NCBI GenBank assembly: GCA_963828255.1
Contig: CAWHDZ010000038.1
Location: forward strand, 1-64,000
DNA: 64,000 nt
Direction of reading: 5' to 3'
From: an uncultured delta proteobacterium
GTDB taxonomy: Bacteria; Myxococcota; Myxococcia; Myxococcales; Anaeromyxobacteraceae
Part shown: positions 34,801 through 59,553 of the stretch, one piece after another
Numbering within the stretch: the first letter of the stretch is position 1
Layout: every line of letters starts with the position of its first letter
Program-made: the position numbers and the translations under genes
The notes under the pieces: model-generated
Told to the model about the DNA's origin: nothing
Seen by the model: the letters and a program-made list of their open reading frames with translations, nothing else
The model's database searches: none

Positions 34801-35526
34801 CCGCCCGGCGCCCGCGACGCCGAGGCGCTCGTGCTGCCCCGCCCGGGAGAGACGCTGCGGCGCGAGCGGACGCCGGCGCTGCCGGCCCCCGACGGGAGCG
34901 CGGTGCTGCTCCGGATCCAGCTCGACGAGAAGGGCGACGCGGTCATCGAGGGGACCGAGACGTACGACGGGTTCGAGGGGGCGGGGGCCAAGGTGGCCAT
35001 CGAGCAGCTCGACCAGAACGGCCGGCGCCGCGCGGTCGAGCAGTCGCTCTCCCGGAGCTTCCGGTCGCTCCGGCTCGACGAGCTGCGCTTCGAGGGGGAG
35101 CGGGAGGTCGGGACGCCGTTCGTGATCCGGTACAGGGCCCGGGTGTCGGAGCTGGCGCGGACGTCGGGAGGGCGGCTGGTGGTGGAGGACGTGCCCTATC
35201 CGGCGCGGCTCGTGGCCCGCTTCGCGCCGCTCGCGGCCCGGGAGTCGCCGCTGCTCATCGGGGTCGGGGACCGGTCGGCGCTGCGCATCGAGGTGACGCC
35301 GCCGCCGGGGGAGACGCCGGTGGCCGGGGCGCCGGTGAAGGTGGAGGCGCCGCAGGGGAGCTTCGTGCGGGAGGAGCGGGTCGAGGGGGGGAGGCTGGTG
35401 CGGGAGGACCGGCTGGAATTGCGGCGGGCCAGGGTGGGGGTGGGGGAGTATCCGGGGTTCGCGAGGTGGGCGGCGGCGGTGGACGAGGCGCAGGCGTTGC
35501 CGATGGACGTGGGGGCGGGGAGGTAG
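31858..35526 (+). CDS. Paralogous large TPR/DUF3857/transglutaminase-like protein lacking the catalytic Cys
   Basis: GTG overlaps the upstream stop; signal peptide, WTLAGPF, TPRs, [18 protein letters not shown] replaces GDCKD. Confidence 0.8.
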
Positions 35527-35527
35527 G

Positions 35528-35772
35528 GGAGTCGGAGTCGGAGTCGGAGTCGGAGTCGGAGTCGGAGTCGGAGTCGGAGTCGGAGTCGGAGTCGGAGTCG
35601 GAGTCGGAGTCGGAGTCGGAGTCGGAGTCGGAGTCGGAGTCGGAGTCGGAGTCGGAGTCGGAGTCGGAGTCGGAGTCGGAGTCGGAGTCGGAGTCGGAGT
35701 CGGAGTCGGAGTCGGAGTCGGAGTCGGAGTCGGAGTCGGAGTCGGAGTCGGAGTCGGAGTCGGAGTCGGAGT
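35528..35772. repeat. Perfect hexanucleotide tandem array (GGAGTC)x40 plus GGAGT
   Basis: Counted directly; 245 bp, starting 2 nt after the TAG at 35524-35526. Confidence 0.97.
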
Positions 35773-35780
35773 TCGTGTTC

Positions 35781-35914
35781 CGGCTCCCTTTCGGGTGGGG
35801 CCTGCCTGGAGGCGCACGCCCCGCGCCAGCCCGCGGTCCTTCGCGTGTGGATCCCGCGTCGGGCTGTCACGGCGCCTGCGCCGGATGGGGCAAACCCCAC
35901 CCGCAAAGGAGCCG
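35781..35914 (+). ncRNA. Predicted rod-like structured leader occluding the RBS of the four-helix-bundle gene
   Basis: 35781-35800 pairs with 35895-35914 (18/20 identity to the reverse complement); nested GGCGCA/TGCGCC, CGCC/GGCG, CAGCCCG/CGGGCTG and TCC/GGA stems. Confidence 0.6.
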
Positions 35915-35917
35915 CAG

Positions 35918-36241
35918 ATGGCCTTCATCGCATTCGAAACCTCGCTCGAGCTCATCCGGTCGCTGGACGAACCGCTCACCATCCTCGACCGGCGCGACAC
36001 GGACCTCGCCAGGCAGCTGAGGCGCGCAGCGGCCTCGGTCTCCCTGAACCTCAGCGAAGGCAATCGGCGCAACGGCAAGGACCGCATCCACCTGTGGCGG
36101 GTGGCTGCCGGAAGCGCGGACGAGGTCGCCGCTGGCCTGCGCGTCGCGGAGGCCTTCGGCTACCTGCAGGCCACCGCCATCGCGAAGTCCCTCGCGCTCA
36201 CCGACCGCCTGCTGGCGATCATCTGGAGCCTGACGCATTGA
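35918..36241 (+). CDS. Four helix bundle protein (23S rRNA IVS-protein / bAvd-like family), 107 aa
   Basis: AAGGAG RBS; hallmark [19 protein letters not shown]...AAGSADE...AFGY motif. Confidence 0.9.
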
Positions 36242-36245
36242 CGGA

Positions 36246-36269
36246 CCGTCTCCGTCTCTGCCTCCGTCA
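36246..36269. repeat. Degenerate hexamer repeats (CCGTCT-like x4), inverted relative to the GGAGTC array
   Basis: CCGTCT CCGTCT CTGCCT CCGTCA, compared with CCGACT as the reverse complement of the array unit. Confidence 0.55.
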
Positions 36270-37409
36270 CCCCCCGAACAACCTCTCCGCCACCGCGCTG
36301 TGCACGTCCATGCCCGCCGCCGTCAGCCGGATACGCCCGCCCCGCACCACCGCGAGCCCCGCCCGCACCAGCCCTTCGACCTCTCCTCTCCTGTCGGGCG
36401 CGATCGCTCCCTCCTCCAGCCCCTCGGCCGTCCGCAACGACAGCATGATCCGCTCGTTCGCCATCTCCCGCGCCCCGAGTCGCTCCTCGTCCGCAGTGGG
36501 GAGTTCCCCCGCGTCCACCGCTGTGAGCCACGGCCCCACCTCGCGGTGGTTCGTCCAGCGCACGGCAGACTCCCCGGAACGAAGGCACCCCACCGCCCCC
36601 GCCCCCGCGCCCAGGTAGTCCTCCGACCTCCAGTAGAGGAGGTTGTGGCGGGACTCGAACCCGGGCCGGGCGAAGTTCGAGACCTCGTAGCGCCGGAACC
36701 CTGCCGCGCCGAGCACCTCGGTCATGGCTCGCCCCTGCGCGACCACCTCGTCGTCCCCCGGGAAGGAGAGCTTCCCCTGCCGCGCCAGCCGAGCGAAGGG
36801 CACGTCCTCGGCCAGCACCTCGGCGTCGAGGGTGAGGGCGTAGGAGGACACGTGCGTCACGGGGAGTGAAACAAGCCGCTCGGCGTCGGCCCGGGCCGAG
36901 CCCACCGAGGAGCGGCGCCCGCCGTGGATGAGGTCCACCGAGACGTTCCCGATCACCCCCGCCACCTCGCGGATGGCCCGCTCGGCGTCGGCCGGGTCGT
37001 GGCGCCTCCCCAGCTTGTGGAGCACCGCCGGGTCGAAGGACTGAACGCCGATGGACACCCGGGTCACCCCCGCGTCGCGCCAGGCCAGGGCCCGGGCCGA
37101 GTCGGCCGACTCCGGGTTGGCCTCGATCGTCACCTCGGCCGCCCGGTGGAGCCCGAGCGCGCGGGCCTCCTCGATCACCCGGGCGATGGCCGACGGCTCC
37201 CAGAGCGACGGCGTCCCGCCGCCCAGGAAGAGGGTGGCGCAGGGACGCCCCCCGAAGGCCGGGGCGCGCCGCCGGATCTCCTCGACCACGGCCGCCGCGT
37301 AGCGGGCCCCCGGGATGGGGCGGGAGGTGGTGACCGCGAAGTCGCAGTACGGGCAGCGGAAGCTGCACCACGGAAAGTGAACGTAGAGGCCGAACGGACG
37401 GGGGGGCAC
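36267..37409 (-). CDS. hemW: Radical SAM heme chaperone (HemN-like)
   Basis: LYVHFPWCSFRCPYCDF, GGGTPS, EANP, YEVSNFA...SRHNLLYW and YLG.GAGA motifs. Confidence 0.92.
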   Translation of the reverse strand: MPPRPFGLYVHFPWCSFRCPYCDFAVTTSRPIPGARYAAAVVEEIRRRAPAFGGRPCATLFLGGGTPSLWEPSAIARVIEEARALGLHRAAEVTIEANPESADSARALAWRDAGVTRVSIGVQSFDPAVLHKLGRRHDPADAERAIREVAGVIGNVSVDLIHGGRRSSVGSARADAERLVSLPVTHVSSYALTLDAEVLAEDVPFARLARQGKLSFPGDDEVVAQGRAMTEVLGAAGFRRYEVSNFARPGFESRHNLLYWRSEDYLGAGAGAVGCLRSGESAVRWTNHREVGPWLTAVDAGELPTADEERLGAREMANERIMLSLRTAEGLEEGAIAPDRRGEVEGLVRAGLAVVRGGRIRLTAAGMDVHSAVAERLFGG

Positions 37410-49826: not shown

Positions 49827-50735
49827 ATGGGCCGACTGATTCTTGTCGCAGCCCTGACGTGTCTCGTCCTCTTCGCACTGCCGCCCGCGCGGTCCGTTGC
49901 CGATCCGGTCTCGCCCACGCCGGTCCGGCCGGTGGACCTCTCCCACGTCGTGGAGGGTTCTGGCCCGACACTGGTGATCGTCCACGGGGGATGGGGAGAC
50001 CAGCGAAGCTTCTCCCACGCCGCCCCCATCCTCGCCCAGAGGAGCACGGTCGTCCGCGTCAGCCTCCGGCTCCACTGGCCCAACCCGTGGCCCGCCTCGG
50101 AGCGGGAAGCGATCGCGTCCTACCGGGCGCAGGTGCACGTCGCCGACCTGGTCGCCCTCGTCGAAAGGCTCGGACGAGGCCCGGTCGATCTGCTGGGCCA
50201 TTCCTACGGAGGCGCCGTAGCCGCGCTGCTGGCGCAGTCACGGCCGGACCTGATCCGGAAGCTCATCCTCGTCGAGCCTTCGCTCTACTCGCTCTGGCCG
50301 TCGTGCCCGGGCGGCCAGGAGTACGTGCAGGACCTGGCTGAGTGGAGGGCGGAGATGCGGGCGAAGATCGATGCGGGGCAGGATCCGATCGCGATCGTCC
50401 GGGCCATGTACGACGACGATCGTCCGGGCACCTTCGACTCCTTCCCGGAGTGGCGCAGGCAGACCCTCATCGACAACGCGCGCACGACCGCGCCCCTCCT
50501 CGCGAACAGCCTCCTCTCGGAGCCGTTCGGGTGCGCGGAGGCGAAGCAGATGAAGATGCCCGTGCTCATCGTGGAGGGGGAGAAGACGAGCCCGGGAATG
50601 CGCGCGATCGACACGAAGCTCCTGGAGTGCATGCACGCCTCCCGCCGCGCCGTCCTGCCGGGCGTAGGCCACACCATCCAGTTCGGCGCACCCGAGGTGA
50701 TGGCGGTCGTCGTGGCCGAATTCCTGGCGAGGTAG
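49827..50735 (+). CDS. Secreted alpha/beta hydrolase
   Basis: Signal peptide, VHGG, GHSYGG nucleophile elbow, C-terminal GH. Confidence 0.88.
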   Translation: MGRLILVAALTCLVLFALPPARSVADPVSPTPVRPVDLSHVVEGSGPTLVIVHGGWGDQRSFSHAAPILAQRSTVVRVSLRLHWPNPWPASEREAIASYRAQVHVADLVALVERLGRGPVDLLGHSYGGAVAALLAQSRPDLIRKLILVEPSLYSLWPSCPGGQEYVQDLAEWRAEMRAKIDAGQDPIAIVRAMYDDDRPGTFDSFPEWRRQTLIDNARTTAPLLANSLLSEPFGCAEAKQMKMPVLIVEGEKTSPGMRAIDTKLLECMHASRRAVLPGVGHTIQFGAPEVMAVVVAEFLAR

Positions 50736-50797
50736 GAGCGTCCGCGCCGCGGACCATCGGCCAGATGGGGCGTGGGTGGAAAATGCGTCGAAAGTGC

Positions 50798-50989
50798 TTG
50801 ACACCTTTCCAGACGATTTCACGTTCCGCGAACGGGTCGCGCGCGGAAGGGGTCTGCCGCCGCCGCATCTCGCCGTGCGGCGACGCGCCGTCTCCGGCGG
50901 GGGTTCGGAGATTTCCGCTCCGGAAGGCTCACCAGCGGCCATCTCCGTGCGTTTGGCGAGGGCGGAATTTCCCGTGCGAAGGTGGATCC
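50798..50989 (+). promoter_or_regulatory. Sigma70-like -35 followed by a multi-hairpin leader of the HNH gene
   Basis: TTGACA at 50798-50803; stems 50824-30/50842-48, 50861-67/50876-82, 50891-96/50906-11 and 50913-20/50960-67. Confidence 0.45.
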
Positions 50990-52114
50990 ATGAACGCACG
51001 CGAATGGTCCCTCCGCATCGCCAATCTCGCCCGCCGCGAGCACTGCGCTCTCGTCGATCTCCTTCTCGCGCTCGCCGAGTTCGACCGGCTGGGCGTCCAC
51101 CGGCAGCTCGGGTTCCCGAATCTATTCGAGTACCTGCTCCGGGAGGTCGGACTGTCCCGGGGCTCGGCCTTCTACCGACAGGTCGCGACCCGCCTTCTGC
51201 GAGACTTTCCGGAGATCGCGGAGCCACTGCGAGACGGAAGGCTTTGCATCTCGAACGTCCCCCAGCTCGCCAAGGTGATGACCAAGGGGAACCGGGGCTC
51301 GGTGATGCAGAAGTTCTTCCACTGCTCGAAGCAGGAGGCGAAGCAGGTGGTGGCGGAGATGCTTCCGGCGGAGGTCGTGCCGAGGAGGACGGTCGTCACC
51401 GTGGGCCCGCTCCTGGCGCCAGCGAGCGTTCAACCGGTTGAACGCGATCTGACCTGCCCCAAGGGAGCAAGCCCCGTCCCCGAGGTGCGGCGGACCCTGG
51501 TCGAGCCGCTCACCCGGCACGAGACCCGGATGCACGTCACGGTGTCCCCGGCCTTCATGGCATTGCTGAAGAAGGCGAGGGCAGGCCAGTCGCACGTCAA
51601 GCCTGGCGCGACGGACGAGCAGGTGCTCACCGCGGCGCTGAACCTGCTCATCGAGGAGCAGGGGAAGCGGCGAGCCAGCGTTCCGCCCAAGGTGAAGAGG
51701 GAGGTCGTGAAGCGGGATCAGGGGAAGTGCCAATGGCCGGTGGTCTCGGGCGGGGTTTGTGGGTCGGAGGTGCGGCTGGAGGTGGACCACGTGGTGCCGC
51801 GGGGGAGGGGAGGACCGTCCACGGTGGAGAACTGCAGGATCCTTTGCAAGGCGCACAACCTGGAAGCGGCGCGGGGCGTTTACGGGGAGGAAGTGATGGA
51901 TCGGTACGCGAGGAACCCGGTCGTGCGGGAGGATTGCGCCGACTACTTCGTAGCCGGCGCCGCTACAGCTTCACCTCGTCCACGAACAGGATCTCGTCCT
52001 TGCGCGCGCGGATCCGCTCCAGCAGCTCGGGAGGCGGCGCATCGTCGAGGTCGATGGAGCAGGAGGCAGCCTGCGCCTCCTCGAACACGGTGTTCTGCAC
52101 CTCCTCCACGTTGA
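50990..52114 (+). CDS. HNH endonuclease with helical (DUF222-like) N-terminal region; 3' end uncertain
   Basis: LAEFDR...LGF.NLFEY, RDQGKCQW....CGS...LEVDHVVP..RGG.STVENCRILCKAHN; the last ~150 nt overlap the convergent gene. Confidence 0.85.
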   Translation: MNAREWSLRIANLARREHCALVDLLLALAEFDRLGVHRQLGFPNLFEYLLREVGLSRGSAFYRQVATRLLRDFPEIAEPLRDGRLCISNVPQLAKVMTKGNRGSVMQKFFHCSKQEAKQVVAEMLPAEVVPRRTVVTVGPLLAPASVQPVERDLTCPKGASPVPEVRRTLVEPLTRHETRMHVTVSPAFMALLKKARAGQSHVKPGATDEQVLTAALNLLIEEQGKRRASVPPKVKREVVKRDQGKCQWPVVSGGVCGSEVRLEVDHVVPRGRGGPSTVENCRILCKAHNLEAARGVYGEEVMDRYARNPVVREDCADYFVAGAATASPRPRTGSRPCARGSAPAAREAAHRRGRWSRRQPAPPRTRCSAPPPR

Positions 52115-58837: not shown

Positions 58838-59553
58838 ACGTGTCCGATGCGACGAGTCCCAAGAAGCGATCCCTCATGCCGTCCTCACCGCTGCGCCGCA
58901 CCCTTCGCGCGGCCGGCCACCACCTCGCGCCGGTGGTCCAGGTCGGCAAGGAGGGGGTGACCGAGGCGCTGCTCCGCCAGCTCGACCGGGCACTCCTCGA
59001 TCACGAGCTCGTCAAGGTGAAGGCGGGGACAGAGACGCCGGAGGACCGGTTCGGGACCGCCGACGCACTCCTCGCCGGGGCGGCCGGCGCCCAGCTCGCC
59101 CAGATCCTCGGGCGGACGCTGCTCGTCTACCGGCGACACCCGGAGAAGCCTCGGTTCGAGCCACTCCCCGCCTCCCGGACGCCCCGTCCCGCCGCTCCCG
59201 CACGCAAGAAGGCCCGGCCCGAGCCGCCGGCGCGCAGCACCCGGGCCGAGCGAACCGGACGATTCGAACGCGCTGCGCGTCCGGAGAGGCGAGAGCGGTC
59301 CGGCCGTCCGGAACGCACGGGTCGTCCGGAACGCACCGGCCGTCCCGACCGCACCGGTCGGCCAGAACGCACGGGCCGCCCAGAACGCACGGGCCGCCCC
59401 GAACGCACCGGTCGGCCAGAACGCGGGAGCCGCACCGGCCGCCCGGAACGCCCCGGCCGTCCCGAACGCACCGGTCGCCCGGAACGCAGCAGCCGCACTG
59501 GTCGCCCCGACCGCGGCAGCCGCACCGGCCGGCCTCCTCCCCGCCGCCGGTAG
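58834..59553 (+). CDS. yhbY: YhbY (CRM domain) RNA-binding protein with repetitive basic tail
   Basis: LRAAGHHLAPVVQVGKEG, HELVKVK and QILGRTLLVYR motifs. Confidence 0.88.
   Translation: MNVSDATSPKKRSLMPSSPLRRTLRAAGHHLAPVVQVGKEGVTEALLRQLDRALLDHELVKVKAGTETPEDRFGTADALLAGAAGAQLAQILGRTLLVYRRHPEKPRFEPLPASRTPRPAAPARKKARPEPPARSTRAERTGRFERAARPERRERSGRPERTGRPERTGRPDRTGRPERTGRPERTGRPERTGRPERGSRTGRPERPGRPERTGRPERSSRTGRPDRGSRTGRPPPRRR
59240..59535 (+). repeat. Imperfect 18-nt coding repeat encoding PERTGR-like units
   Basis: Roughly a dozen units with synonymous variation (for example ccg gaa cgc acg ggt cgt). Confidence 0.85.

Follow-up and report, generated by a model that had tools for sequence, protein, structure and literature searches.

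We identified a cassette of four parts, a tandem hexamer array, a leader hairpin, a PF05635 four-helix-bundle gene and a short inverted arm, that fills the convergent junction between a DUF3857/TPR gene and hemW in a 64,000-nt stretch of DNA (hereafter, the window) from an Anaeromyxobacteraceae genome (G000; 4.3 Mb, 99% complete). The cassette is real, is undescribed in the literature that we searched, and is a variant of the intervening-sequence (IVS) kind. With about even confidence, we read it as a non-autonomous, IVS-like selfish element that spreads by gene conversion and by capture in insertion sequences (IS), and that makes a protein which probably binds RNA from its own repeats or hairpin.

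Several features go beyond what a first-pass annotation of the window had proposed, namely the reuse of sites with flips, gene conversion, IS capture, and a loss of C from the ends of host genes (the C-loss footprint). Neither PF05635 cassettes with repeat arms outside rRNA nor such a footprint were found described in the literature searched, most of it open access. PF05635, a widespread family with solved structures, has no known function, and no mode of spread is known for rRNA IVSs; a tractable cassette that offers a covarying RNA and variable arms, together with alleles that are empty or flipped and copies borne by IS, makes both questions testable.

Layout of the cassette

The first-pass annotation had described an array, a hairpin of approximately 135 nt, a 107-aa gene with the motif QLRRAAxSVxLNLSEG and four degenerate repeat units between two convergent host genes. 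All of these were recovered in place, and the flanks were identified as the DUF3857/TPR gene (3' end at 35224..35523, plus strand) and hemW (3' end at 36270..36569, minus strand), both of which lie outside the cassette and bear the same C-loss footprint. The cassette parts are all given on the plus strand. The 5' arm (35528..35772), of the type built from CGG plus three nucleotides, is a perfect (GGAGTC)x40.8 array that begins 2 nt past the host stop, and has the top TRF score in the window. It is followed by the conserved leader (35780..35914), defined by folding and covariation, with an outer stem (35780-35800/35895-35914) and an inner stem containing three conserved mismatches (35811-35832/35861-35882). 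The ribosome-binding site AAAGGAG (35905..35911) is predicted, from folding of the read-through transcript, to be paired within the outer stem, and precedes the four-helix-bundle gene (35918..36241), which was assigned to PF05635/TIGR02436 and the S23p/Avd fold by profile search and structure modelling. The short 3' arm (36246..36269) consists of four degenerate CCGTCT units, inverted relative to the 5' arm, and overlaps the hemW stop. No Rfam family matched the window at its gathering score, the only match being a chance one to mir-2518 (E 0.14). A further tandem repeat in the window, of 18 bp (59300-59530), lies in the coding tail of a small gene (RPER-type peptide repeats), and is an ordinary coding repeat.

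The suggestion that the ends of the transcript could pair is borne out as a prediction. The 3' units match the reverse complement of the array unit at 5, 5, 4 and 4 of 6 positions, and the duplex between 3' arm and array has a predicted energy of -33.9 kcal/mol, versus -18.8 kcal/mol for shuffled sequences (1 of 1000 shuffles as low). Predicted pairing with the array involves 18 of 28 downstream nt in the window, 189 of 240 in G062 and 107 of 165 in G064, and in G058 the 3' arm at the same place comprises approximately 17 units. As in an IVS, an S23p-family ORF is therefore framed by termini that are predicted to be complementary. Against an IVS-like element, several other cassette copies have no 3' arm, the inner stem is missing in 4 of 52 leaders, and in paired elements the arms are not always inverted.

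The array is perfect as assembled. Raw reads of the same strain were searched for and none were found; the best read-set matches share 0.37 of words, and are all contigs. A near-identical contig from an independent run covers 35049-35499 with one difference, and the best-matching contigs, whose cover stops outside the array region, contain no joints or inversions. The one RNA run that was aligned has reads over hemW and none over the cassette. In G058, an array of 39.5 units (GGAGTC/GGATTC) lies behind the same DUF3857 stop.

Association of gene, leader and array

Six copies of the four-helix-bundle gene were identified in G000, each between protein genes, and all six have the leader directly upstream as well as an array. 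The leader occurs nowhere else in this genome, and the six top-scoring short-period arrays of its 4.3 Mb are those of the six gene copies. We looked for arrays that occur independently of the gene, raised as an objection in the first-pass annotation, and found long arrays in the genome only at these six places. The array units in this genome are GGAGTC, CCGACT, GGGTTC, CCGCAA and a 13-mer; nearly all array units consist of CCG or CGG and three to four free bases. A second copy (C17:145409) has an array and leader identical to those in the window.

The association extends to other genomes. Among 122 four-helix-bundle genes whose flanks were complete, 67 have an array in the 400 nt upstream; for gene ends of G000 the figure is 4 of 2,107, two of the four being cassette sites. 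With relatives among the 122 loci sharing kinship, the proposed survey of gene flanks shows arrays to be enriched. A covariance model of the leader had matches in 20 of 92 family genomes, and these are exactly the genomes with the protein subfamily. As many of these carriers supplied training rows for the model, the informative figure is that no leader was found in the 72 non-carriers. Two leaders were seen without an intact gene. The idea that the parts form one unit is upheld by the six complete copies, by empty orthologous sites (below) and by the confinement of the leader to genomes with the subfamily.

We additionally identified, in many relatives, two diverged four-helix-bundle genes arranged tail to tail, each with its own leader and array, at several sites (e.g., in G031, G027 and G026), while at L043 and L149 paired genes lie back to back; a hetero-oligomer of the paired products is possible. 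Arrays also contain or adjoin further REP-like palindromes of various kinds (L023, L015, L028, L036, L144, L149), which suggests landing sites shared between repeat elements.

The leader hairpin

The hairpin at 35780-35914 has a predicted energy of -86.6 kcal/mol (z -4.2), and none of 200 shuffled sequences was as stable. Across 37 aligned leaders, two-sided changes occur in 9 of the 28 pairs, a number that 0 of 500 shuffles reached; 93.8% of cells can pair, versus only 26-48% in slid controls, and 62 cells show two-sided change, versus 20.7 in shuffled alignments (0 of 500). G-U changes in the outer stem favour an RNA read from the plus strand. In the read-through transcript, the bases of AAAGGAG have predicted unpaired probabilities of 0.01-0.31, and in other four-helix-bundle subfamilies the ribosome-binding site is hidden by unrelated hairpins. 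A type I toxin-antitoxin locus combines a leader that occludes the ribosome-binding site, an antisense RNA and a small toxic protein; for the cassette, occlusion of the ribosome-binding site is predicted, a sigma54-like motif in the leader faces backwards, and PADLOC returned no match.

Both arms of the inner stem (35811-35832 and 35861-35882) resemble sigma54 -24/-12 promoters; they face in opposite directions and each has a different conserved deviation. We counted TGTCACG-N4-NTGC 13 times, 6 of them in cassettes, and its versions at other spacings 0 and 4 times; rpoN is encoded in the genome. The sigma54-like reading of the inner stem is a lead.

The cassette protein

The 107-aa protein matched PF05635 at 51.8 bits (cut-off 33.8) and TIGR02436 at 55.1 bits (cut-off 24); PF05635 was the only domain detected, and no nuclease domain was found on it. 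A structure model based on an alignment (pLDDT 97.9) was used in place of a single-sequence AlphaFold model (pLDDT 54.8). It matched the solved structures 2RLD (Z 17.4), 2GSC (Z 16.5) and Avd (Z 14.2-14.5), with TM scores of 0.83-0.89 and an rmsd of 1.5-1.8 over 104-106 residues to 2GSC and 2RLD. By analogy with these relatives, the protein would form a homopentameric ring; RNA of the cassette's repeats or hairpin is its probable ligand. Avd grips a stem-loop via bases flipped out into crevices between protomers (10.1101/2023.10.23.563531), and binding of this type would, by analogy, fit the imperfect arms and the three conserved mismatches of the leader. Members of the PF05635 family also occur in cas loci, where repeats go unmentioned in the accessible part of the report (PMC3936711).

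Judged from a median dN/dS of 0.18 over 322 pairs, the cassette genes are under purifying selection; nonetheless, copies broken by frameshifts and deletions occur in G063, G064, G054 and G059. The period of the repeats tracks the protein clade (3 changes of the heptamer label, versus 11.1 when shuffled; 0 of 500), and the clade of the window's protein (29 rows, including Myxococcota and Planctomycetota) is hexamer-based throughout. In 54 of 56 genes, residues 100-102 match the orientation of the neighbouring array, with 15 mixed rows left out; the residues AML were found in 29 of 31 genes with CCG arrays and in 0 of 25 with CGG arrays. These residues were the best of approximately 100 windows, picked after the fact, and among independent pairs, too few to be decisive, 3 of 3 went the same way (p 0.25). 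Co-inheritance alone can explain both links.

Presence, absence and spread

A non-autonomous mobile element had been proposed, with alignment of the DUF3857-hemW junction as a check. Among 12 congeners with both flanks, this junction was empty in 5, held the cassette in 5, and held other cargo in 2. The cassette is forward in G000, G064, G054 and G058 and reversed in G062; the gene of the G054 copy is internally deleted, and the G058 copy is split over two contigs. Junctions at smc, polA, dapF, nadA and agmatinase genes are likewise reused, and reversed copies were seen at smc, at polA and at one additional site. In the gene tree, starred clades unite copies from different sites of one genome (three in G062, three in G064, two in G059, and copies A and C of G000, which are 98.4% identical and have identical arrays and leaders), array type goes with gene clade, and site-wise clades are limited to the sister pair G000 and G058. 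Such a tree is what gene conversion or recurrent replacement would leave. The reversed copies fall in another clade, making inversion in place less likely.

Copies inside an IS support mobility as well. In G029, leader, gene and array lie within a 2,355-bp IS with CTAG ends and a DDE/DUF772 transposase (a pair that we take to be IS1182-like), present in three copies that are at least 99.9% identical. Elements with CTAG ends also contain four-helix-bundle units in G025, G136, G179 and G119, and other subfamilies occur in MITE- or IS-like elements in the last three of these. Against an IS-borne origin at the site studied, we found no target duplication when filled and empty DUF3857-hemW junctions were compared, and neither the ends nor the transposase of the G029 IS are present in G000, which has seven DDE_Tnp_1 matches. 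A phage search gave no match, and a plasmid search one distant match to Nostoc only.

In G029 (C2:1205500-1216500), two inverted copies of the cassette-bearing IS enclose two low-GC genes as a composite transposon. In G058 (C18:36766-40086), DUF3857 is joined via a cassette to smc, where G000 has the pairs DUF3857-hemW and smc-ftsY; the swap of flanks may reflect recombination between near-identical copies, or mis-assembly.

The cassettes could instead be inert, old IS passengers with unstable microsatellites, the perfect 40-mer being partly an artefact of assembly. Such a view would accommodate the IS-borne copies, the lack of same-strain reads, and an identical 390-nt upstream region common to two copies in G000, but it is highly unlikely given the dN/dS of 0.18, the covarying leader, the array of the same length in G058, and the fact that comparable arrays occur nowhere else in the genome.

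Comparison with known systems

The closest known kind is the ORF-bearing 23S rRNA IVS, a likeness already drawn in the first-pass annotation and strengthened by tandem repeats that precede the ORF in both. In Coxiella burnetii, according to one report (PMC4990558), the IVS in helix 45 of the 23S rRNA has an S23p ORF and terminal inverted repeats and is excised by RNase III; 2-3 heptamers, variable in number, precede the ORF, which is not translated without an added ribosome-binding site and whose protein is non-toxic in E. coli. The cassette shares an S23p-family ORF within complementary ends, tandem repeats before the ORF, and a patchy distribution. Poor translation is reported for the Coxiella IVS, and predicted for the cassette, via its occluded ribosome-binding site. 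The cassette differs in lying between protein genes, in its six copies, in hexamers of up to 42 units versus 2-3 heptamers, and in having a separate covarying leader, a strong but occluded ribosome-binding site, purifying selection, flips, conversion and IS capture. Because it lies outside rRNA, with protein-gene flanks at all six copies, it falls outside the 23S IVS class.

The cassette also resembles the Avd component of diversity-generating retroelements (DGRs), with the same fold at 10% identity and a small gene adjoining a structured RNA (10.1101/2023.10.23.563531, PMC10053308). Unlike a DGR, it has no reverse transcriptase (RT) in its genome, and no variable target gene was recognised; its protein belongs to PF05635 by sequence and is closer to 2GSC/2RLD than to Avd. 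The first-pass annotation had suggested that slippage or an enzyme acting in trans expands the repeats, and an RT working with the Avd-like protein, with the hairpin as template, might do so in a telomerase- or DGR-like manner. This would be in keeping with the fold match to Avd (Z 14.2-14.5) and with the conserved structured RNA adjoining the array, but we consider it very improbable. A profile search found no RVT_1 match in this 99%-complete genome, extending to the whole genome the absence of an RT noted for the window, and RVT_1 is likewise absent from G059, G062, G064 and G031 (carriers with 5-8 matches each). The suggested test of co-occurrence showed no enrichment: an RT is present in 9 of the 20 carriers, leaving 11 without one, and in 20 of the 72 non-carriers (Fisher p 0.18). 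The hairpin as template for the repeats was ruled out, as near-identical leaders accompany many units, in both orientations, and one conserved leader cannot be the template of many different units.

In REP/REPIN-RAYT systems, a nuclease gene is framed by inverted repeats at the gene ends, the repeats are dispersed by the hundred, and residence is long and vertical. The cassette gene is similarly framed by inverted repeats, has a long vertical residence, and nests with other REP-like palindromes; it differs in having no nuclease domain, in its tandem microsatellite arms, and in long arrays confined to six gene copies. Likeness to IS passengers and MITEs lies in the IS-borne units of relatives and their CTAG ends; unlike these, the copy in the window has no transposase, IS ends or target duplication, whereas the G029 copies qualify as IS.

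C-poor host gene ends and the proposed explanation

Host genes that are transcribed into the cassette have lost C. At the DUF3857 end, C makes up 0.12 of four-fold sites over the final 300 nt, less than at any other of the 2,990 gene ends (crude gene calls; mean approximately 0.51), and falls in 150-nt steps through 0.46, 0.23, 0.16 and 0.07. The hemW end (0.20) ranks 5 of 2,990, and the host genes of four more copies rank 10, 12, 17 and 30; three convergent neighbours with no array or only a short one have normal C, and one flank was not recovered. Orthologue ends beside a cassette have 0.07-0.26 (n=16), versus 0.16-0.66 without one (n=25), with one overlap, the hemW end of G061 being dropped (partial match) and the decayed G054 copy (0.50, without skew) set aside; p is 1e-7, which overstates the case as kin are not independent. 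The footprint likewise switches within genomes, from 0.21 at the smc end with a cassette to 0.42-0.44 at three ends without in G059, and from 0.14 to 0.55 in G054. Synonymous changes against empty orthologues comprise 61 C>G and 7 G>C in polA (53:35 among empties), and 42 C>G and 2 G>C in smc (28:24 among empties). T is raised at two-fold sites (0.18 vs 0.075) in an automated screen; such screens are noisy, with crude ORF calls and paired cassette genes counted as hosts, and the orthologue tables are reliable.

The gene ftsY, which is transcribed away from the array, is unchanged, ruling out an effect of the DNA strand facing the cassette regardless of transcription. G-rich ends as a general property of convergent genes were also ruled out (0.499 vs 0.518). 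Beside another repeat family in G000, 3 of 4 adjoining gene ends are C-poor too, ruling out a footprint specific to the cassette. The skew is present without a cassette at smc in G062, and 11 ends scored outside the family show little or none of it (noisy screen). Thus, a C-loss over approximately 250 nt, tied to transcription into a repeat element, is real. Its presence in the essential genes polA, smc and hemW indicates that an intergenic element can locally reshape codon usage, and, being strand-specific and graded with distance, it provides a sequence marker for lost copies.

In our preferred explanation, the selfish IVS-like cassette, host transcription passes straight from the stop codon into the arm, as the layout shows. 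The leader is predicted to fold over the ribosome site, and the arms to pair into a long imperfect stem. Little protein would therefore be made from read-through RNA; given the dN/dS of 0.18, some is presumably supplied, by a weak internal promoter or by processing. The pentamer may, from the example of Avd, grip bases flipped out of imperfect stems. Copies appear, from their pattern, to overwrite one another at a few junctions in either orientation, probably as recombination between sites, with the arms as homology, copies the cassette. Slippage and unequal exchange, for which no RT would be needed, could lengthen the arms or alter their unit, and an IS can ferry the whole unit to new CTAG sites, to judge from G029. 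C is lost over approximately 250 nt of genes transcribed into the arm. The simplest causes would be exposure of the non-template strand when polymerase stalls at the arm, or selection against C-rich RNA there. Set against this explanation, the footprint is not cassette-specific, does not occur at the decayed copy in G054, and is at most weak outside the family.

A somewhat unlikely alternative is active drive without a nuclease or RT, in which the pentamer on nascent repeat RNA would cause polymerase stalling, an R-loop, damage to C, array expansion and copying recombination. At the same somewhat low confidence, an Avd-like ring would recognise the cassette's repeats as the host transcript emerges, residues 100-102 in helix 4 setting which strand of the repeat is used. 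The footprint fits in being limited to genes transcribed toward the arm, graded with distance, raised in T at two-fold sites, and switched with cassette presence within G059 and G054, as does the agreement of array orientation with residues 100-102. However, the same footprint beside an unrelated repeat means that a hairpin alone may suffice, and the residue link is post hoc and under-powered. If true, this would be a new category of selfish element, rRNA IVSs and bacterial hexamer or heptamer arrays would be special cases or relics of it, and C-poor gene ends would map former cassette sites.

It is unlikely that the cassette is a host-domesticated module, in which arms and leader, lying between convergent genes, would terminate or attenuate transcription or be cut by RNase III, the protein would be an RNA-binding helper retained because it benefits the host, and C loss would be selected to adjust Rho loading or folding. 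Its sites are stop-to-stop junctions of housekeeping genes with long residence across the genus, its genes are under purifying selection, rnc (RNase III) and rho are both encoded in G000, and synonymous C>G changes make up most of the footprint, all of which would suit such a module; yet 72 of 92 family genomes have no member of the subfamily, empty junctions are common, and copies decay (G063, G064, G054, G059) and ride in IS elements. Mechanisms other than passive conversion with IS capture, R-loop drive or a host module are, taken together, decidedly unlikely.

Besides the main rho, G000 has a second Rho-like gene (C15:34691-35770; 472 bits, below the cut-off). The slot-H 'scar' (C15:158833), a candidate cassette trace, probably belongs to another repeat. 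An HNH endonuclease gene (PF01844) in the window (50342-52114) holds an end repeat of a dispersed element at 51418-51460, found at 7 places in the genome, and host gene ends adjoining repeats of this type are C-poor. Finally, another C-poor gene end, near 20756 on contig C3 of G000, is followed by a gene with flanking repeats that, as recognised by eye, is presumably RAYT-like.
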